NCBI GenBank assembly: GCA_963783575.1 | Contig: CAWAOD010000009.1 | Span: forward strand, 384,001-448,000 | Reading direction: 5' to 3' | DNA from: an uncultured Spirochaetota bacterium | GTDB lineage: Bacteria; Spirochaetota; Brevinematia; Brevinematales; JAOACQ01 | DNA length: 64,000 nucleotides | Shown: positions 1 to 17,126 of the stretch, piece by piece | How the letters are laid out: every line of letters starts with the position of its first letter | Numbering within the stretch: position 1 is the first letter of the stretch | Notes under the pieces: model-generated | What the model saw: only the letters and a program-made list of their open reading frames with translations | What the model was told of the DNA's origin: nothing | Database searches by the model: none | Translations under genes and position numbers: made by a program

Positions 1-36
1 CTTGTTTTATAAATATTAGTATAATAGGAGGTTAAA

Positions 37-531
37 ATGAATCCTAATGTTAATTTGACATTATTTTCTAAGGATAGTTATCGCTCGACCCGACAAGGGA
101 AAATGGTGCTTAATTTTAGTGCGCTCCAAATATTTCCCTTATTGTGCCCAGTAGAAGAGTATAAATGGTTCCCAGGCTGGGAATGTATAATGGTATATTC
201 CAAAACAGGGATTGCAGAGAAAGATGCCGTCTTTTTAACCAAAGAAAAGGACGGTTCTAATATTGTCTGGACAGTTATCACATATGATCCACCCAATTTA
301 ATTGAATTTAGTATCGTAAACGGTCTGAATTCCGTCGAGAGATTCAGTATTATTTTGACAGAGATATCTCATAAAAGTACTGAACTTGAATGGAAAATCA
401 TGAATACATCTTATTCAAAAAATAGTATTGAACAAAACAAAAATCAAAATAATGAATCTTTTAATATTTTTTTAGAAGATAGAAAAAAGGAAATGGACTA
501 CTATCTACGGACAGGGAAAATAATTCAATAA
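37..531 (+). CDS. SRPBCC/START-like fold hypothetical protein (cassette gene)
   Basis: AGGAGG RBS; motif FPLLCPVEEYKWFPGW...WTVITYDPP; followed by attC at 552. Confidence 0.6.
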   Translation: MNPNVNLTLFSKDSYRSTRQGKMVLNFSALQIFPLLCPVEEYKWFPGWECIMVYSKTGIAEKDAVFLTKEKDGSNIVWTVITYDPPNLIEFSIVNGLNSVERFSIILTEISHKSTELEWKIMNTSYSKNSIEQNKNQNNESFNIFLEDRKKEMDYYLRTGKIIQ

Positions 532-551
532 TTATATTAATAAGGCACTGC

Positions 552-712
552 GCACAACAGCAAGTCAGCGGTTGCGCTCGAGTACTCGCTCCACCCAAAT
601 CGCCGGGCTGGTTGAAAGCAATTAAATATGTTAATTTTTATAAATGCTTTTTGATATAATATTTACAGCTTAATTAAATACCGGCGACTTCGCCGACTTG
701 CACCCGTTGTAC
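552..712 (+). other. attC-like recombination site 1 (161 bp)
   Basis: R'' GCACAAC 552-558 and R' GTTGTAC 706-712. Arms GCAAGTCAGCG / CGCCGACTTGC; inner stem ATCGCCGG / CCGGCGAC; AT-rich central loop. Confidence 0.8.
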
Positions 713-822
713 GAAAATTTCCGGGCCGAAGCTGATGATATTACTTTTCCGGCGTCCTTGCCGGAAAAATGATTTATTATTTAAAATGTATTAGAATTTA
801 TATCGATTAGTAGAGGTTTTAA

Positions 823-2160
823 ATGGCATTATTATCAGAAATTGAATCTGCACTAATGCTTGGAATTACAGTTGAATTATTAAATTCATATACAAAATAT
901 TGTCCAAAATCTGGCGAAAATGTTAAATTAAAATATAAAATAGTAAAAGGTATAAAACATTTTGAAAAAGATGATATTCTATTTTATCATAAATATTTAA
1001 ACAGTCCGTGGCCTATGCCAAAAAAAGGAGAAAGACCATATATTCCTAAAGCAATCCAAGATTTTATAAAGTTTGAATCACATTATTCCTGTTCAATTTG
1101 CGGTCATATGGATAATGGTGAAATAGCACATATTGAAGCAGTTTCAACAACACTAAATAATAGTCCAGATAATCTTATTTATTTATGTCCAAATCATCAT
1201 ACAAAATATGATTATGGTTACAAACCTAATAGTAATGTTACATTAGAAGAAATTCGTGCTTCAAAACTTTTAAAAAGAAATGCTTTACAAAGAGTGATGA
1301 AATATGAGTCTAATACAGTTAAATTATTAAAAGTTACATTATTAAACATAAAATCAATCAGTGAAAAACTAGCCTTTGAAAGTGATAAAACAATGCTAGA
1401 GATTTATAATGTTGAATTACAAAACATTGTGAAGAATTTACCAGAATATATAGATAAAGCAAATGATGACGCAAAAAAAGATATAAGTTTAGTAAATGAA
1501 AAAGAACTATTATCTAAAAATGCACCAAATTTAATAAAATATTCAAATATAATAATAAAAGATTCTTCTTTGTTCAAAACATCCGTTGACTCAATAATCA
1601 AGATTTCTAACGAAATATTTATTGATTTAGATGAATATCCCTGTCCTCATTGTGGAGGAAGCGGACTAACAGGATTACTCGGTGATATATGTGTTTATTG
1701 TAAAGGTTCTTGTGTAGTCTCAAAGCAAATGGTTAATAGTTATGACTCTAATAAAATTGATGAAGTTGAATGTCCTCATTGTGGAGGAAGCGGACTAACA
1801 GGATTACTCGGTAATATATGTATTTATTGTAAAGGTTCTCGTAGAGTATCTCATAAAAAGTTTGATCAGTATGATCCAGATAAAATCGATGAAGTTGATT
1901 GCCCTCGTTGTGGGGGAAGCGGACTAACAGGATTACTCGGTGATATATGTACTTATTGTAAAGGTTCTCGTAGAGTATCTCATAAAAAGTTTGATGAGTA
2001 TGATCCCGATGAAACCAATGAAGTTGAATGTCCTCATTGTAGGGGAAGTGGTCTATCAGGATTAGTCGGTAATGTATGTAAATTATGTAAAGGTTCATGT
2101 GTTGTAACTAAGATAGTATATAAAGAATATATCAAGAAATATGGAACTATTGGCGATTAA
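823..2160 (+). CDS. HNH endonuclease fused to four DnaJ-like CxxCxGxG zinc-finger repeats (cassette gene)
   Basis: HNH motif CSICG...EIAHI...NSPDNLIYLCPNHH; C-terminal 4 x CP(H/R)C(G/R)GSGL(T/S)GL(L/V)G(D/N)(I/V)CxxCKGS. Confidence 0.8.
   Translation: MALLSEIESALMLGITVELLNSYTKYCPKSGENVKLKYKIVKGIKHFEKDDILFYHKYLNSPWPMPKKGERPYIPKAIQDFIKFESHYSCSICGHMDNGEIAHIEAVSTTLNNSPDNLIYLCPNHHTKYDYGYKPNSNVTLEEIRASKLLKRNALQRVMKYESNTVKLLKVTLLNIKSISEKLAFESDKTMLEIYNVELQNIVKNLPEYIDKANDDAKKDISLVNEKELLSKNAPNLIKYSNIIIKDSSLFKTSVDSIIKISNEIFIDLDEYPCPHCGGSGLTGLLGDICVYCKGSCVVSKQMVNSYDSNKIDEVECPHCGGSGLTGLLGNICIYCKGSRRVSHKKFDQYDPDKIDEVDCPRCGGSGLTGLLGDICTYCKGSRRVSHKKFDEYDPDETNEVECPHCRGSGLSGLVGNVCKLCKGSCVVTKIVYKEYIKKYGTIGD
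1630..2106 (+). repeat. Intragenic tandem repeat, 4 x 129 bp (43 aa)
   Basis: TG(T/C)CCTC(A/G)TTGT...AAAGGTTC units start at 1642, 1771, 1900 and 2029. Confidence 0.9.
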
Positions 2161-2224
2161 AGCCTCCGCCGTCCTGGGCTCCGGCTTTTTGCTTAAACAT
2201 TCGGCCCGGAAAACATCGTACAAC

Positions 2225-3978
2225 GGCCTTGTAGAAAAAGTTAATTTCAGGTAATAATCCTCCATTCCCAAACAGTTTGTTTTTTTTGATCTGTCTGGAA
2301 TTACTTTATTTATATAAAACCGGGCTGAATTTACCGGCAAAGCTGCTTTTATTCCATCACTATGCCATTATATCCCTCCATAGACCTGAATTTTCCCGAT
2401 ATTGTGCACAGTATTATATAATACCCATTGAATATTCACTTTTCCCTTTCCCCTCAGCGTAAATCGATCCATACCTTTACATGCCCTTATATTCCCGAAT
2501 ACAGGCTCAACTATAGCCATTCTTTTCGCATAAAGCTTTCTGCCTTCAGGTGTATCTATGAACTTTCTCATTTCGTCCGAGTAATGTCTGTTATCCGCAT
2601 TTAACGGCCTTTTTGGCTATATAGTAGCTCTTATGGAACCTCCGTGTTCCCAAGGTTGTTTGATTTTATTTTAATTCTTCAGGAAGTCTTTCTGGAATGG
2701 ACAATTACGGCAGGCCGATAACCGGCACATATACTTCGCATATGTAATATGATTCACCGTATAGTTATATCTGAACCTGAGTTCCTCTCCTTTCTTGCAT
2801 ATATAAACATTATTTTCCGGATCATATTGAAAATCATCAATTGTATACTGCCCTTTCTTCGCAGGCTTATGTCTGTCAGCGGTTTCAAACCTGCAATCGC
2901 GCTTCCTGAAATTCGTATCCGGGATGACCGGTTTCATACCGTTTTGCGAAATATATTTCAGGTTCTTTTCGCTGAAATAATTGGTGTCCGCGGTGATTAT
3001 TTTATCCTTTAAATCTTTTCCCAATTCTACTTTTGCTTTACGGATCATCCCTTTCAGGAATTCCCCCTCAGACCCGCTCCCAAAAGCTTCGGGATATACC
3101 ACAACCTGATACTTCGAATCCACTACAGAAAGTCCGTTGTAGCCCTGGATAACACCATGTGAACTCTTTATTTTCGCACTCTCGTTGTCAGTGACATTGG
3201 ACTGCTTTTCACCATGCCGTGCCTTGTTTTTGGGTTTTTCACTTTCCAGAAACTTTTCTATCTTTTCAGCTTTCTTTAAAATCTTCTCGATCCGTGCCAG
3301 ATCTTTTTCCTTATCCTTCTCAGGAAAACCGCCGTCCTGATCACGCTTTTCATGTTCATCAAGCATTTCCTTAACCAGGTTTTCCAGCTTCTCTTTTTTC
3401 TTCTTCAAATCCTTAAATGTTCCGCTCCATTCCTTTGATGCATTTGACGATAGTTTGCACCCGTCCAGCGCGAACATATCCCCGCCTATGAGATTCAGTT
3501 CGTCACAAACCATCAATATATTCAGGAATACGGTATTTATCTCATTTTTCATCGAAGAAACAAAATCGGCGATTGAAGTAAAGTGCGGTATTGAATTGGC
3601 GGAAATGGCTTTGGCTATAATATTCGTTTTACACAAATATTCGATTTCACGTGATGTAAAAATACCGCGGGAATAGCTGTAGAGTATTATCTTCAGCATA
3701 ACCCGCGGATTATAGGCCGGGGCACCGGTAGCATCGTTCTTATACTTATTCTCAAAGATTTTAAGATCAATTCTGCTGTCAACAAGAAAACTGAGTGTAT
3801 ATTCAAATGTTCCCGGTATAATCTGCTCATCGAATGAGACAGGTATGAGTTCCATTTGATCGTAATTAACTTTCTTATGTCTTGCCATAATTGATTTCCC
3901 CTCTTGATTTTATTTACAATATATTTTAAAGTATAACCGTTATTTTGTACATGAATGACGGACTTTTTCTACAGGCTC
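2225..3978 (-). mobile_element. IS1182-family insertion sequence inserted in attC site 2
   Basis: Terminal IRs GGCCTTGTAGAAAAAGT / ACTTTTTCTACAGGCTC; AAC target duplication at 2222-2224 and 3979-3981; encloses the transposase. Confidence 0.9.
2368..3888 (-). pseudogene. IS1182-family transposase interrupted by in-frame stops (ORFs 2671-3888 and 2368-2571, same frame)
   Basis: GAPAYNPRVMLKIILYSY, ALDGCKLSSNAS, ITADTNYFS and C-terminal RMAIVEPVFGNIR motifs; stops at 2671-2673 and ~2617. Confidence 0.85.
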
Positions 3979-3981
3979 AAC

Positions 3982-4200
3982 AACAGCTTAGCGTTCCGTT
4001 CCTCGGCGTTGCGACGCCTGCGGTACTCAGGGCTGCGCCCACATTTGCCTTTGACACAGTTTTTGCGTTATAATATTTGAAGGAAAGTTTTATGAGAAAT
4101 AATAAAATTTTACACTTTAAGGAAGCATTTACACAAAAAGGCAAAAACTGCGCCAATCGCTGACACGAACGTCAAACGTCGCCAAGCTATACCGTTATGT
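3982..4200 (+). other. attC-like site 2, main part (R'' GTACAAC at 2218-2224 lies left of the IS; reconstructed length ~226 bp)
   Basis: Arms AGCTTAGCG / CGCCAAGCT; inner stem CAGTTTTTGC 4057-4066 / GCAAAAACTG 4141-4150; R' GTTATGT 4194-4200. Confidence 0.75.
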
Positions 4201-4301
4201 GCAATACTCGCGTTCGATTTAATAAATATTTATAGGGCGATTTAATTTTGCTTCTAAATTTTTTTTGATATAAAATAATACTTATAAATTTCAACTTTTT
4301 T

Positions 4302-4331
4302 TTGACTTTATTCTACTTTCTCATATAGAAT
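4302..4331 (+). promoter_or_regulatory. Putative sigma70 promoter inside the SRPBCC-EVE cassette
   Basis: TTGACT-N18-TAGAAT; AT-rich context lowers specificity. Confidence 0.35.
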
Positions 4332-4399
4332 ATTTGACAGATTAAAATTAAAATATAATTATAAAAATAAGTTAATTGTAAAGTAAGGAGGATATTATT

Positions 4400-4819
4400 A
4401 TGATAAGTAAATCATTTTCAACAACAACTAAGAAGGTTTCAAAAGAGCAACTTTGGAAGCTTATGTCCCACATCAATGATTGGAAAAAGTGGGATAACAC
4501 AGTTGAATATTCTGAACTTCAAGGAGACTTTAAAACTGGATCAACATTTATTTTAAAACCTAAAGAAGGACCAAAAGTAAAAATAAAATTAATTGAAGTA
4601 AAACCAAATAATTATTTTAAAGACTGTACTATATTTCCTTTGGCTAAAATGTTTGGAGAACATTGGTATGAGGAAACGTCTGATGGCGTAAAAATTACTG
4701 TAACGATGACTATAAAAGGTATTCTGTCCTTTTTATGGTATAAAATAGTTATGAAGGAATTAGTTGAACATCTTCCGGAAGATGTAAAAAATCAAATTCA
4801 AGCTGCATATAAGTTATAA
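4400..4819 (+). CDS. SRPBCC family (polyketide cyclase/dehydrase-like) protein
   Basis: AAGGAGG RBS; motif WKLMSHINDWKKWD...LQGDFKTGS...KPKEGP. Confidence 0.8.
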   Translation: MISKSFSTTTKKVSKEQLWKLMSHINDWKKWDNTVEYSELQGDFKTGSTFILKPKEGPKVKIKLIEVKPNNYFKDCTIFPLAKMFGEHWYEETSDGVKITVTMTIKGILSFLWYKIVMKELVEHLPEDVKNQIQAAYKL

Positions 4820-4873
4820 TTTATTTGCACTATAATTAGAGTAATCTAGAAGATTTATAAAAGAGGTATTAAT

Positions 4874-5305
4874 ATGAAATATTGGATTAATACAGTTTCA
4901 AAAGATCATGTTATGATTGGTAAAAAAAATGGAATAGTTCAAGCCAATCATGGAAAATTATCACCATTGAAACGATTAAAAGTTGGAGATCAAATAATTT
5001 ATTATTCGCCGAAAACCTCATTCGAAAATGGTGAACCTTTAAAAGCATTTACAGCAATTGCAGAAATAATCGATGAAAAAATATATCAAATAGAATTAAG
5101 TGATGACTTTAAACCATATAGAATAAATGCTAAATATTTGGATTGCAATGAAGTTAAAATTGAACCTCTGATAGAAAGTTTAAATTTTATTAAGAATAAA
5201 AAATCTTGGGGTTATATGTTTAGATTTGGATTATTTGAAATAACAAAACATGATTTTGATTTGATTTATTCGATGATGAAAAAACAACGCGAGTACAGCA
5301 CATAA
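4874..5305 (+). CDS. EVE domain-containing protein
   Basis: MKYWINTVSKDHV...HGK...LKVGD.IIYYSP...WGYMFRFGLFEI; the stop codon TAA lies within R'' ACATAAC. Confidence 0.9.
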   Translation: MKYWINTVSKDHVMIGKKNGIVQANHGKLSPLKRLKVGDQIIYYSPKTSFENGEPLKAFTAIAEIIDEKIYQIELSDDFKPYRINAKYLDCNEVKIEPLIESLNFIKNKKSWGYMFRFGLFEITKHDFDLIYSMMKKQREYST

Positions 5306-5604
5306 CGGCCTTGTAGAAAAAGTTAATTTCAGGTAATAATCCTCCCTTTCCAAACAGCATGTTTTTTTTGATCTGTCCGGAATCACTTTTTTATATAAAA
5401 CCGGGCTGAATTTACCGGCAAAACTGCTTTTATTCCATCACTATGCCATTATATACCACCATATGGAAATGTCAAGAGTTTTTCCCATATCTGCGCTCGG
5501 GTAATTTCCCACCCCTTCCACAAGAGTATTTCCCATATGCTTCACAAGAGTTTTCCCCATACCTTCCACGTGAGTATTTCCCATAGTGAGGAGGCAAAGA
5601 ATGG

Positions 5605-6354
5605 TTACTCAACCTCCTTATTCAAATTTTGTATTCTGTAAGATTCTCCGCTCAAGTTATAAATATTTGAATGATGTAAAAGCCTATCCAGAAGAGCGGT
5701 TGTCATAATCGGGTCTCCCATCATTTCAGCCCAATCCTGAAATCCCTTATTCGATGTTATCACAATTGATGTCTTTTCATACAATTCACTTACAAGACTA
5801 AAGAATAGATTTGCCTCCTTCTTTTCGATAGGTGTGTAACCTATCTCATCAATGATTAATAAGTGTGACTTCATCATCCGGTTCAGCCTGAAAGCAGAGC
5901 TTCTCTGGATGTCCGCCGTTTTCAGAAACTTAATGAGAGTAGTCATCCTTTCAAAGCAGACAATATATCCCTTTTCAACTGCCCGGATTCCGATACTAAT
6001 TGCCAGATGCGTTTTCCCCAGCCCCGGAGACCCAAAGAACAACAGGTTATGATGATTATCAATCCAGCAGAAATCCAATAGCTGTGAAACATCCATTTTA
6101 GATATTCCATTCACTTTTTCAAAATTAAAACCTTCCACATCTTTGCGGACCGGGAAGTGTGCTCCTGCCATATTCCGCTGAAAACGTTTTTCCACTCTAT
6201 AATTCAATTCCAGAGAAAGCAGCCTCTGCAGAAAACTCAGATAAGACTCTTTTGCCTTTTCAGCCTCACCAATTTCCTCATCAATCCGTTTTATCATACC
6301 CTTCAACCCGAGAGTTGTAAGCGCAGTTATGATTTGTTCTCTTATCTTCAACAT
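5605..6354 (-). CDS. istB: IS21 helper ATPase IstB
   Basis: Walker A GSPGLGKT, Walker B LLIIDEIGY, ITSN and ALLDRLLHH motifs. Confidence 0.95.
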   Translation of the reverse strand: MLKIREQIITALTTLGLKGMIKRIDEEIGEAEKAKESYLSFLQRLLSLELNYRVEKRFQRNMAGAHFPVRKDVEGFNFEKVNGISKMDVSQLLDFCWIDNHHNLLFFGSPGLGKTHLAISIGIRAVEKGYIVCFERMTTLIKFLKTADIQRSSAFRLNRMMKSHLLIIDEIGYTPIEKKEANLFFSLVSELYEKTSIVITSNKGFQDWAEMMGDPIMTTALLDRLLHHSNIYNLSGESYRIQNLNKEVE

Positions 6355-7901
6355 TGCCGGCCCCCGATGGAGTCACAGAAACTCTGGTATTTCCCGATGT
6401 CTGATTTAGCTACTTCAAGATAGTGTTCAGGATTCACTGAAGGCCTGACAATCTTTTCAACATTCAAGGGTATTTCTGCCTTTTCTGTTATAAAACAGTT
6501 CAGGTAATTATCCCACAAATCCTTCATGGAATAACTATCACTCTCCAGGCAGTTTGAGATCGCTTGTGTAAGCTTCCCGGTATCAATTATCTTGTCCCTG
6601 AAGTATTTTCTTCCGGAAAGACATTGGTCCCTTACATAACGATTGAACTTCCTGAAATTACATTCAAGAAAATCCTTCCAGCCGGGAATATCAAAGTACC
6701 CGCTTACTTCTTCTTTCAATAACTGCACAGTCTTTCCCATTTCCCGGATCATTGACCTGTTGGTTACAATCTGCCCCGGAATCACTGAAAGCCGGTATTC
6801 GGCGATTTGCTCTCCCGTTATCCTGTCAAAGACAAAAAGCCGACTGCCCGTCTTGTAGATGTCCACCGAACCGTTCCTGTATTTTTCGGGAATATCATAC
6901 TGGCTTGCATCAACTGCGATCCGGCATTTATCGCTTACACTGCGCTCTTCCCTTGCTCCTATCCTGTCTTTACGGAATATCGAATTCCTGACAGATTGGA
7001 GATATGGTCTTTCCGTTTCAATCTCTATCAGTGGTATTTTCATTGTAGCCTGGGATATTCTCCCGTTGGCTTTTCTTTCCAGCCATTTCATCAGGCTTTC
7101 TTCCGCTTCCATTAAACTGTTGAACTCCCGGACTGAGAAGAAACCGTGCTTGATGAATTTGACTACGTTTTCAATCTTTCCCTTACTTTCCGGGTCAGCA
7201 GGTCGGCACACATACATTTTAAGACCCATTTCCCCGATGAAATACTGAAAGTCTTTCGTGTAGATGATATCGCCTGAGTTCTCACTCGCAACCATCGTGC
7301 AGTCCTGATCGATGACAAGTTCATGCGGTATCCCGCCCATATATGCGAAACAGTCCAACAGATGATTGATAAGGTCTTCTGTCCGGAATGGCCTCTCCTG
7401 GAGGGCCGCATACTTAAAACGACTGGCGGATAACACCGCGGCAAATATGTAATACCTTCTGCCATATCTGTCGGTATATTGACCGAAATCAAGCTGGAGC
7501 TGCTTTCCATATGGCATGTCAGGCACTTTTGTGTAATACCGTCGCTTTTCATTCAAGGTAAGCTGCCCGCTTTCAATCAGGTAATGTACGAAATTCCTCA
7601 TCGTATTTTCATTCGCCGGTAGTTTGCCTTTTACCTCCAATAAATAGTCATACAAAGCAGACATATTCAGCCGGATGTAATCATTCTTTTCATATACTTT
7701 CAATATGTCTGTTTTTATTCCTTCGAATTCTTTTTCACGGAAAGAGAATTCCATCAGGCTTTTCTGGTATTCGGAATCGTTCATAGCCCAATATTTTCGG
7801 ACTGTCTTAATATCTATTGACAGTTCCCGGGATACACCATTTTTACTTTTCCCCAAAAGTTTCAGTTTTTTTATGTCCTGATACATAATATTTTTCACCA
7901 T
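6348..7901 (-). CDS. istA: IS21 transposase IstA
   Basis: N-terminal HTH; QLDFG, VIDQD and ESKGKIE DDE motifs; overlaps istB. Confidence 0.95.
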   Translation of the reverse strand: MVKNIMYQDIKKLKLLGKSKNGVSRELSIDIKTVRKYWAMNDSEYQKSLMEFSFREKEFEGIKTDILKVYEKNDYIRLNMSALYDYLLEVKGKLPANENTMRNFVHYLIESGQLTLNEKRRYYTKVPDMPYGKQLQLDFGQYTDRYGRRYYIFAAVLSASRFKYAALQERPFRTEDLINHLLDCFAYMGGIPHELVIDQDCTMVASENSGDIIYTKDFQYFIGEMGLKMYVCRPADPESKGKIENVVKFIKHGFFSVREFNSLMEAEESLMKWLERKANGRISQATMKIPLIEIETERPYLQSVRNSIFRKDRIGAREERSVSDKCRIAVDASQYDIPEKYRNGSVDIYKTGSRLFVFDRITGEQIAEYRLSVIPGQIVTNRSMIREMGKTVQLLKEEVSGYFDIPGWKDFLECNFRKFNRYVRDQCLSGRKYFRDKIIDTGKLTQAISNCLESDSYSMKDLWDNYLNCFITEKAEIPLNVEKIVRPSVNPEHYLEVAKSDIGKYQSFCDSIGGRQC

Positions 7902-10863: not shown

Positions 10864-11301
10864 ATGAAAAGGGAAATTAACGTATTAGGTGGGAGTGAAG
10901 TTTTAGACAACGGCCCCTTTTATCACGGGACGAAAGCGGATTTGCGGGTTGGCGATTTGTTGACTGCTGGGTTTCGGTCAAATTACAAACCCGAAGTCAT
11001 TATGAATCACATTTATTTTACAGCCTTGGCTAATGGGGCAGGACTTGCCGCAGCCTTGGCCAAAGGTGATGGACGTGAACGTGTATATATAGTTGAACCG
11101 ACGGGTAGCTTTGAAAATGACCCGAATGTTACGGACAAAAAATTTCCTGGTAATCCAACACGCTCATATCGCACTAAAGCGCCTTTGAAAATCGTCGGCG
11201 AATTAACAGATTGGGTGAGACCAACGCCTGAGGAACTTCAAAAATGGCGCGTAAAGTTGGCTGATATCAAAACGGATTCGAAAGCAGAAATTATTAATTA
11301 A
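10864..11301 (+). CDS. arr: NAD(+)-rifampin ADP-ribosyltransferase
   Basis: FYHGTKADL, NHIYFTA and VYIVEPTG.FENDPNVTDKKFPGNPTRSYR signatures. Confidence 0.95.
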   Translation: MKREINVLGGSEVLDNGPFYHGTKADLRVGDLLTAGFRSNYKPEVIMNHIYFTALANGAGLAAALAKGDGRERVYIVEPTGSFENDPNVTDKKFPGNPTRSYRTKAPLKIVGELTDWVRPTPEELQKWRVKLADIKTDSKAEIIN

Positions 11302-13226: not shown

Positions 13227-14570
13227 ATGTATTTAAAAAGAACAAATAATTGATGAAATTAAGCGTATTGCATTTCAGTTAGGGGTTTCATCATTAAAAT
13301 GAAGAGATTTTCAAATGAAATCAATAATATCTTTGAGTACAGTTTGTTATCATTTTAATACTTGGAATTAAGCAGTTAATGAAGCTGGATTAACACCTAT
13401 AGATAGTACTAAAATATTCAATAATATAGAACGCGGAATTGATGAAGTTGATTTACTAACTGAATTAATCAGACTTAATAAAGAAAATAATATTATTCCA
13501 ACAGGAAGTCTTATTAATTCTAAGGGTAAATATAGTACCAGACCTTATGAACATCGTTGGAAAAATATTAATAATGCATTTAAAAAAGAAGGAGGTAATT
13601 TGTGTTTAATAAGAGTTTATTAATTTTATTAGTTGTTTTGTCAATAATCATTTATAATAAACAAATATTAAATGGAAAAAATAATGAAAAGACTACAACT
13701 GGTTTAACAAACAAATTAAAAATATACGATAATTTGGATTATGGCTTTGATTTTAAATATCCGGCAAATTTTAAACTCCAAAACTTTAATGATCTTGGCC
13801 CAGATGAATTTATGCAAACCCATGACAAATTACAGTTGGAAAAATTAGTAGAAATTAATATGAATGGTTGGTTTTGTACCTACATTTGTCCTATTGATAA
13901 ATTTCTGGATGTGAATAATGTTAAGACTGTTAAAGATTTAGATCCGAAACTGCAATCGAAATCAATAAATAAGATTAAATATTATTTAAGCCCGGATGAA
14001 GAGGGTCCAGCAGCCATGGGCGGCCATAGAAGTACAGTATTTACTTATATTACTATTCAAAACAATCATTGCTTTTTATTTGTACAAACGTTGGCATATG
14101 ATATATATGATTTTGCAACAGAAGGAGGCGATATGCCCCGCAACCTGCATCCAAAAGAAGAGAAGGCATTACAAGACTGGATAACCAAACAAAAAAATGA
14201 ATATGAAAAATTCCTGGAGTCAGTTAAATTTTATAATACTAATCCAGGACCTAATGGCTGACAAATAAAAAGCAAACCTTCTATTAAATAACTTCTAGTA
14301 AGTAAAATAATTGTCAGATAACTTGCTTAGTTTTGTAAAATTAGCGAGGTTATAATTTTTGCCTGATGCATTTCTGTTAAAGATATTAAAATCATTTCAT
14401 CATTAATTATATCAGTTAAAATTGAATTTGAATTCAATAGTAAAAATTTTGTAAATCACGGTCATAATCCGGATGAATGTGATATTATAGTATATTGGGT
14501 TCATGATTGGCAAGAATGTACTTTAGTAATTTTAGAATTAAGGAATGTTATAAAATATTTGAAAAGTTAA
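13227..14570 (+). pseudogene. Disrupted homing-endonuclease-associated-repeat / nuclease gene (fragments 13227-13590 and ~14340-14570)
   Basis: Fragments EIKRIA...STVCYHFNTWN*AVNEAGL and HGHNPDECDIIVYWVHDWQEC contain stops and frameshifts; the gene ends just before attC half-site 14589. Confidence 0.55.
13602..14261 (+). CDS. Secreted hypothetical protein (PsbP-like YGF.FKYP motif)
   Basis: AAGGAGG RBS with GTG start; signal-like N-terminus; YDNLDYGFDFKYP motif; C-terminal FLESVKF. Confidence 0.6.
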   Translation: MFNKSLLILLVVLSIIIYNKQILNGKNNEKTTTGLTNKLKIYDNLDYGFDFKYPANFKLQNFNDLGPDEFMQTHDKLQLEKLVEINMNGWFCTYICPIDKFLDVNNVKTVKDLDPKLQSKSINKIKYYLSPDEEGPAAMGGHRSTVFTYITIQNNHCFLFVQTLAYDIYDFATEGGDMPRNLHPKEEKALQDWITKQKNEYEKFLESVKFYNTNPGPNG

Positions 14571-14588
14571 ACACGCGCGGAAAACTTC

Positions 14589-14620
14589 GTACAAACACGG
14601 CATACCTGTTCCGCTCCGTC
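14589..14620 (+). other. attC-like left half-site, truncated by IS110 remnant
   Basis: GGAAAACTTCGTACAAAC resembles the cassette-2 end GGAAAACATCGTACAAC; followed by ACGGCATACCTGTTCCGCTCC, similar to the attC2 arm GTTCCGTTCC. Confidence 0.55.
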
Positions 14621-16769: not shown

Positions 16770-16885
16770 TTTTAATTCAAAAAGATTTGGAAACAATTCA
16801 TAATATTAAAGCTTTTAAAGAAAGATGCAACAACTGCGACAATCGCTGACGGGTAAGGCAAACGTCACCAAACATGCCGTTATAT
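16770..16885 (+). other. attC-like right half-site
   Basis: GCAACAACTGCGACAATCGCTGAC...CAAACGTCACCAA...CCGTTATAT is homologous to the attC2 right arm 4141-4200; R' GTTATAT at 16879-16885. Confidence 0.7.
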
Positions 16886-17126
16886 GCAAGCAATGTCGGA
16901 TCTTTGCGTTAAGAAGTGATTTCGGCATCCTTACCGGAAAATTGATTTTATTGAATTATCTAATTTATTATAGAATTTATAAAATTTAAATACAATAATT
17001 ACATATGTGACACAGTGTTATAATTATATGTATTGTAATAAGTTATTAAATATTAAAAAATATTATGATTTGTTTTCTCCATTTTTTTTTGCTATAATAT
17101 TATCCAAATTTATTGAGGAGTTTAAT

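Follow-up and report, generated by a model that had tools for sequence, protein, structure and literature searches.

In the part of PMC2727003 consulted here, the self-pairing of cassette ends in integrons is reported to extend to 9-11 nucleotides (nt) for most cassettes. According to the consulted part of PMC4792948, the I2 insertion of the integron integrase (IntI) and the extrahelical bases of its sites, which are regarded as defining for integron recombination, pose a chicken-and-egg paradox as to how either could arise without the other, and the CTX phage site has no extrahelical bases and mimics double-stranded DNA (dsDNA) for the insertion-less XerCD. In addition, the consulted part of bioRxiv 10.1101/542381 places the insertion-less tyrosine recombinases of IS91 and IS3 elements next to IntI, as its closest such homologs. 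This paper describes the cassette ends in a stretch of 64,000 nt from an uncultured Spirochaetota bacterium, hereafter the window (positions 384,001 to 448,000 of contig CAWAOD010000009.1, GenBank assembly GCA_963783575.1; in our labels G000:C9:384001-448000, where G000 is the source genome of 4.9 Mb and 89.85% completeness, and C5 and C11 are other contigs). Four FlaA matches above the cut-off, with none in 14 control genomes, speak for a spirochaete. The window holds three cassettes, all in direct orientation. The pairing of cassette ends in this genome is real, it is specific to the cognate ends, and it is about twice as long as the published extension.

Cognate complementarity of cassette ends

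Thirty-two cassette starts were curated in this genome; 27 were paired with the next end and 5 were unpairable, which gave 25 distinct pairs. Cassette ends were set independently of the stem, by the end of an insertion sequence (IS) or by the left attC arm, and the seed pattern for starts demanded A at position 11 (position 1 being the first base of the start arm). At positions 12-20 the start and end of the same cassette match in 176/225 comparisons, against 74±8 after shuffling, a level reached in 0 of 20000 shuffles. At positions 26-40 the same 25 cassettes are without cognate signal (121 against 122), the excess of cognate matches ending near position 21-22, and the median stem is 22. In 18 of the 25 cassettes, no other end pairs as well with the start as its own. 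Chance, AT-richness and an array-wide consensus are ruled out as the source of the pairing by the shuffles.

Position 11 is fixed as a non-pair: it is A in all 25 starts and G in 23/25 reverse-complemented ends, the two bases facing each other as A·C in the top strand and as T·G in the bottom one. Of 27 strong sites recovered with a profile built from just the attC arm, 26 have A at this position. The crossover lies at G|TT, where the register of end and start is fixed, and a duplicated copy of cassette 1 is identical from CC|GTT onward behind different attC arms. These features make it very improbable that the pairing works at the RNA level by holding a cassette transcript's 5' and 3' ends together, for stability or for an RNA-based creation of cassettes. 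The cassettes are read on the top strand and some ends have terminator-like hairpins, as such a role would have it, but the 3' terminator-like hairpin precedes the end arm, the strand that is transcribed has A·C as its fixed pair and only the bottom strand has a wobble there, and the register of the stem matches the G|TT crossover exactly.

An earlier note on the window had described inverted repeats at the ends of cassettes 2 and 3, and both are there. Between the arms listed in Table 1, cassette 2 has 22/25 matches with mismatches at positions 10-12, and cassette 3 has 19/21 with mismatches at 10-11. Genome-wide, at least 22/25 matches to the cassette-2 start are found only in itself, its own end and their duplicate on C5, and at least 19/21 to the cassette-3 start only in itself and its own end. 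The start that was predicted for cassette 1 is found 24 bases upstream of the window as GTTATATGCAATGCCTTA; nine of the 13 predicted letters are right and the other four are not, and it matches its own end at 14 of 18 positions. Complementarity beyond the R box is a general property of the arrays and specific to cognate ends, as the 25 distinct cassettes and the relative described below show. The earlier note's suggestion that structure rather than sequence is conserved is true of the outer stem and not of the bubble, whose letters are fixed. Mismatches starting at position 10 are a feature of the two cited cassettes; generally position 10 is paired (17 of 25 cassettes), and the invariant non-pair is position 11.

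The relative, G011, belongs to the same family but another genus, and its 28 starts gave 20 pairs, 17 of them distinct, with A at position 11 demanded by one of two start patterns. Matches at positions 12-21 number 132/170 against 54±8 shuffled, the median stem is 21, and position 11 is A in 17/17 starts and G in 16/17 reversed ends. The 42 pairs of the two genomes pooled fall into 27 end families, all paired, and one random member per end family (27) gives a matched fraction of 0.77 against 0.31. Within families there are 11 compensatory and 19 other differences, and every position from 13 to 21 shows all four bases among the matched pairs. As a control, four genomes of the same phylum with canonical IntI (87 starts, 75 pairs, 66 distinct) stay at the shuffled level over positions 12-21 (168/660 against 160±9) and have a median stem of 8. 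Twelve class 1 cassette genes were also tried and 7 were measured; five stems are 12, one is 19 by score (12 perfect), and one is 5 through a mis-called end. Furthermore, a search of a contig collection with a recombinase fragment gave four loci, none with a clear array, and a metagenome search with the cassette-2 start gave one short contig.

Junctions, recombinase and a proposed circle-only stem

The array junctions contain an attC-like palindrome, R''-L''...L'-R', with an AAC/GTT core, in sites of 160-253 bp. The inner stems are 10-11 bp and either have no bulge or bulge out a single T on the top strand rather than a conserved C, and no conserved extrahelical G is seen in L'' of the bottom strand. 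In the intact junction between cassettes 1 and 2, the bottom strand folds the R box and inner stem (z -2.5) and the top strand does not (z -0.7). An Rfam search of the window gave no match, and an attC finder set to the classical geometry (spacers of 5/5-6, a single bulge) gave one perfect palindrome and missed all the array sites. One attC on C5 (L002:17151-17319, G000:C5:472151-472319) has left and right inner arms from different families that pair poorly, which suggests an exchange inside its variable loop.

The main array, on C5, is headed by a tyrosine recombinase gene (C5:457129-458102) with the array's own orientation, and no recombinase gene is found near the window's own array. The gene is frameshifted in this assembly and intact in G011. 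Its product is without the IntI-specific insertion (I2 region): a 41-residue gap is seen against canonical IntI, the distance from K..R to HxxRH is 65 residues compared with 106 in IntIs, and the TIGR02249 score is 161.6 with a cut-off of 265. The best fold matches of a structural model (predicted local distance difference test 88) are the integron integrase 2a3v and archaeal XerA. In a quick tree, 13 such proteins form a weakly supported group (84), distinct from IntI (100) and the Xer-like rows, and the array recombinase is separate from the two Xer-like proteins of this genome; a dif site was not located. Homologs of the recombinase at E<=1e-50 make up 7161 of 7999 scored candidates. The N-terminal domain of 70 residues (in G011, L016:2251-2460) is also present on a canonical spirochaete IntI. 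PF07443 (HARP) is found in 43/100 recombinase homologs at E<=0.01 and not in the query itself; the domain has a weak fold match to SMARCAL1 HARP (Z 4.0, root-mean-square deviation 1.7 over 44 residues, rank 28), and no fold match of it exceeds Z 5.3. The top plasmid matches of the recombinase are Clostridium proteins, and the one inspected adjoins an IS91 transposase. Beside the C5 recombinase no IS91 transposase gene is seen, as judged from lists of open reading frames (ORFs) with no family search; a cassette ORF of 129 amino acids (aa) follows it.

An ordinary integron with a longer R-box extension, moved by a canonical IntI that was lost or not assembled and with the insertion-less recombinase being incidental, is improbable. 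This genome has a completeness of 89.85% and a broken recombinase, and extensions of 9-11 nt (PMC2727003, in the part consulted) and of about 12 in the class 1 cassettes measured here are on record. But no integron-integrase match at E<=1e-60 exists in this genome, and no canonical integron integrase exceeds the cut-off in G011, G383, G177 and G168, four other genomes with such junctions. Moreover, the insertion-less gene heads arrays of its own orientation in this genome, G011 and G383, and the same-phylum canonical arrays stop at a median of 8.

A putative attI-like site lies at the head of the main array, where no attC precedes the first cassette; the start of this cassette, at C5:458246, pairs with its own end over 21 positions. 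The attI-like spacer is ATATCGAG, and the attC spacers are mostly CCGCACCG and variants. Ordinary two-strand exchange is unlikely because these spacers share little beyond G. It is thus quite unlikely that the sites are recombined as dsDNA in the Xer/dif style, with the terminal repeats as transposon-like protein-binding ends. Each junction can be read as arm-spacer-arm, and an enzyme without the IntI insertion, with archaeal XerA structures among its top fold matches, would suit such a reaction. However, the spacers vary among sites as well as against the attI-like site, the inner arms covary as a hairpin, and one protein could not read the outer repeats as binding sites, because no common sequence is present across the 27 families.

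The reading that we prefer, with a probability of roughly 55%, is that the outer stem of the recombination hairpin zips only in the free circle, presents the insertion-less recombinase with a dsDNA-like substrate, and favours integration. The matching ends would be the outer part of the recombination hairpin of each cassette, some 21 bases long with a fixed odd pair at position 11. The outer stem, as the earlier note had pointed out, is formable only in the excised circle or across a whole cassette strand, and with start and end zipped only in the free circle, the recombinase would meet a long dsDNA-like site. As for IntI, the folded bottom strand would be cut at AAC, one strand exchanged, for which CTX is a precedent as well, and the resulting junction resolved by replication. 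The binding arm would comprise positions 2-12; the wobble, T·G in the bottom strand and A·C in the top one, together with a 1x3 loop beside the crossover, may replace the extrahelical G as the strand mark; and positions 12-21 would stabilise the site of the circle, so that integration is favoured over excision. Predicted folding fits a bias towards integration: for ten C5 cassettes, the bottom strand reaches an R-box pairing of 0.94 in the junction of the circle and of 0.44 in that of the array, with predicted energies of -59 and -47 kcal/mol, respectively.

Several observations weigh against this reading. Five of the 25 pairs match at five or fewer of positions 12-21, although two of these weak pairs are accounted for, one by an IS21 element adjoining the end and one by a single-base deletion, the pairing being restored when gaps are allowed. 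The feature is in part ordinary, since class 1 cassettes, too, pair to about 12. In the distant genome G383, 26 starts gave 14 pairs with A at position 11 in 14/14 and G in 13/14, but there is no cognate signal at positions 12-21 (50/140 against 47.5), and a stem is present in only 5/14 pairs, all short cassettes, to about position 16; in the nine long spans, undetected sites may have been skipped. The marking of the strand by position 11 is weakly supported, because the top strand of the circle junction folds nearly as well (0.87 against 0.94), the bottom duplex gains no more than about 1 kcal/mol over the top, and wobbles outside position 11 have no strand bias (13 bottom, 12 top). In addition, since the recombinase is frameshifted in this assembly, its activity rests on the intact relatives.

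Shared ends, insertion sequences and the map of the window

The ends of cassette 2 are shared with cassettes of other content. At its start (29-63 bases) and at its end (26-70 bases) it shares 86-97% identity with the corresponding ends of G011 cassettes that carry Fur, ferritin, catalase-peroxidase and DUF4491 (3.7 kb), a four-ORF DUF3842 unit (2.3 kb) or a 175-aa ORF; a restriction-modification cassette has a cassette-2-like start, and its end was not located. Thus the earlier note's term "cassette-specific" is right as to cognate specificity and too strict otherwise, one end family framing unrelated cargo. The hairpin at 749-764 of cassette 2 is also present in cassettes of relatives with other cargo.

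Such reuse could mean that the ends are the footprint of cassette creation, a pre-existing end module being reused with new DNA placed between, so that the outer stem is inherited and has little role in recombination. As the explanation of the pairing this is rather doubtful, though it and the circle-only stem are compatible and can both be true. It accords with the absence of protein or internal DNA matches among the cargos that share cassette-2-like ends, with the four different inner attC arms that these ends precede, and with one cargo gene whose 67.5% identical homolog lies outside cassettes in this genome, in an operon that is metal-transporter-like and has no start-like site within 10 kb. 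On the other hand, the 27 paired end families, the compensatory changes and the fixed non-pair point to selection on pairing, and an identical mismatch in every case would not be expected if one end had been copied from the other. The multi-gene cassettes might also be fusions, though no hidden start was found inside them. The idea that the ends are a trace of creation, which the earlier note had raised, therefore gains from the reuse around unrelated cargo only as a lead suggested by sequence comparison, because shared ends are expected wherever attC families are homogeneous. A catalase-peroxidase homolog in G000 was considered as a clean donor state and rejected, as it adjoins EVE-gene remnants and an IS end. 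This homolog, at G000:C11:224400-227300, is frameshifted, is 85% identical to the G011 cassette copy and lies behind tRNA-like sequences as well. In several cassettes, hairpins with an (A/G)TCCT(T/G) loop lie some 46 bases behind the start and 50 ahead of the end, and the motif is also found outside cassettes and in G383 ends. As to a REP/RAYT origin of the inner hairpins, two Y1_Tnp matches were found, neither adjoining copies of the motif.

Both cited cassettes end in AAC and are followed immediately by an IS1182-type element. As the IS parts the end arm from the inner attC arm and hairpin, the excised circles of cassettes 2 and 3 would not form the long stem. Left ends of IS1182-type elements stand directly after the cassette-end AAC in 23/25 cases genome-wide, and related elements do likewise in G011. 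Decay of the stem after IS insertion was not significant (means 8.75, n=12, and 6.77, n=13; p=0.09). Tetu and Holmes reportedly described in 2008 an IS1111-attC group of insertion sequences homing to attC sites; unlike that group, the elements here are of IS1182 type and are inserted after the AAC of R'', with AAC repeated. In four G011 loci (L034, L061, L062 and L065), the same 387-aa transposase-like ORF and end sequence occur about 20 bases after four different cassette starts; this is possibly a second element that targets the edge of the outer stem.

Cassettes 1 and 2 are duplicated in the main array on C5, the identity running from CC|GTT, behind a different attC arm, into the IS. The left boundary of the block thus looks site-specific and the right one IS-mediated. 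The two copies of the cassette-2 gene (the second at G000:C5:473165-474439) differ at one base, window position 2096, and encode 445 and 424 aa; the gene contains a zinc-binding motif as three 129-bp repeats.

Table 1. Features of the cassette region in the window (coordinates of the window).
Feature	Position	Strand	Remarks
Cassette 1	1..558; begins 24 bases upstream of window	+	164-aa ORF 37-531, without Pfam or NCBIfam match
Cassette 1 end arm	541..558 (R'' 552-558)	+	14/18 complementary to own start
attC-like junction, cassette 1/cassette 2	552..712	+	intact, 161 bp
Cassette 2 start arm	706..730	+	G|TT crossover between 706 and 707; position-11 A (fixed) at 716
Remainder of shared 5' end, cassette 2	731..770	+	hairpin 749-764, loop GTCCTT
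Cassette 2 cargo	823..2160	+	445-aa protein; borderline HNH match; DnaJ-type zinc repeats
Shared 3' end, cassette 2	2155..2199	+	terminator-like hairpin 2166-2184, then T run
Cassette 2 end arm	2200..2224 (R'' 2218-2224)	+	fixed position-11 partner C at 2214
IS1182-type element	2225..3978	-	directly behind AAC of R''; AAC again at 3979-3981
Transposase of IS1182-type element	2671-3888		score under NCBIfam cut-off
Rest of attC-like junction behind IS, to R' of cassette 3	3979..4200	+	
Cassette 3 start arm	4194..4214	+	fixed position-11 A at 4204
Cassette 3 cargo	4400..5305	+	Polyketide_cyc2-domain ORF 4400-4819; EVE-domain ORF 4874-5305
Cassette 3 end arm	5286..5306	+	fixed position-11 partner C at 5296
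Left-end remnant of second IS1182-type element	5307..5469	.	after AAC; truncated by IS21-family element
IS21-family element	istB 5605-6354, istA 6348-7901		

Elsewhere in the window there are remnants of further cassettes: at about 14570-14620 a lone cassette end whose left attC arm is truncated, and at about 16830-16940 a lone right arm together with a cassette start. A gene of the rifampin ADP-ribosyltransferase (Arr) family at 10864-11301 lies outside the detected cassettes.

Comparison with known systems

The full-text literature searched, mainly on integrons, with few subscription papers and without supplements, yielded nothing on cognate stems of about 21 bp, on a fixed wobble at position 11, on insertion-less integrases with arrays or on IS1182 in attC. 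In their consulted parts, PMC5027507, PMC3607928, PMC4889954, PMC9176274, PMC9137128, PMC8876359, PMC10963911, PMC7439510, bioRxiv 2022.02.06.479319 and bioRxiv 2024.07.02.601686 do not describe the feature. The system is likely an undescribed integron variant, and a variant rather than an ordinary integron because it would work like an attC system while two defining traits, the insertion and a conserved extrahelical G, are not seen. More broadly, and tentatively, there may be a second kind of integron without I2 insertion or extrahelical bases, having a long, wobble-marked stem of the circle only, in which cassettes are made by placing unrelated genes of the chromosome, or entire operons, between reusable ends. 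Integron searches recognise intI by its insertion (PMC9176274, in the part consulted), so such arrays are likely filed as integrase-less clusters or missed.

If the broader reading is true, a site whose stem belongs to the circle would be the intermediate that the chicken-and-egg problem of I2 calls for. A stem that closes only once the cassette has been excised would by itself, and in a simple way, bias the system towards integration. An array from nature that has neither the insertion nor extrahelical bases makes the paradox, as set out in the consulted part of PMC4792948, directly testable, and ends reused around unrelated operons offer a concrete handle on cassette creation.

Classical integrons (class 1 and the Vibrio VCRs), as described in the consulted parts of PMC2727003 and PMC5027507, are alike in the R''-L''...L'-R' palindrome with its AAC/GTT core, in directly oriented cassettes, in the complementarity of the own start to the own end and in the better folding of the bottom strand. 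They differ in that here the pairing is about 21 rather than 9-12, position 11 is a fixed wobble, a 1x3 loop stands in place of a spacer of 5-6 nt, no conserved extrahelical G is seen in L'', the recombinase is without the insertion, and the sites are 160-253 bp against a reported 57-141. The reverse integrons of spirochaetes (PMC3607928, in the part consulted, and four genomes measured) keep the 41-residue insertion and have mostly short attC sites; unlike here, the median pairing of their cassette ends is 8, and positions 12-21 carry no signal. CTX phage attP with XerCD (PMC4792948, in the same part) resembles the present system in a folded single-strand site without extrahelical bases and in a recombinase without the I2 domain, but CTX uses the XerCD of its host, whereas here a separate recombinase heads a multi-cassette array. 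Finally, the part of bioRxiv 10.1101/542381 consulted does not name cassette arrays for the IS91 and IS3 recombinases, whereas here the gene carries an N-terminal domain of 70 residues and is followed by an attI-like site and cassettes.

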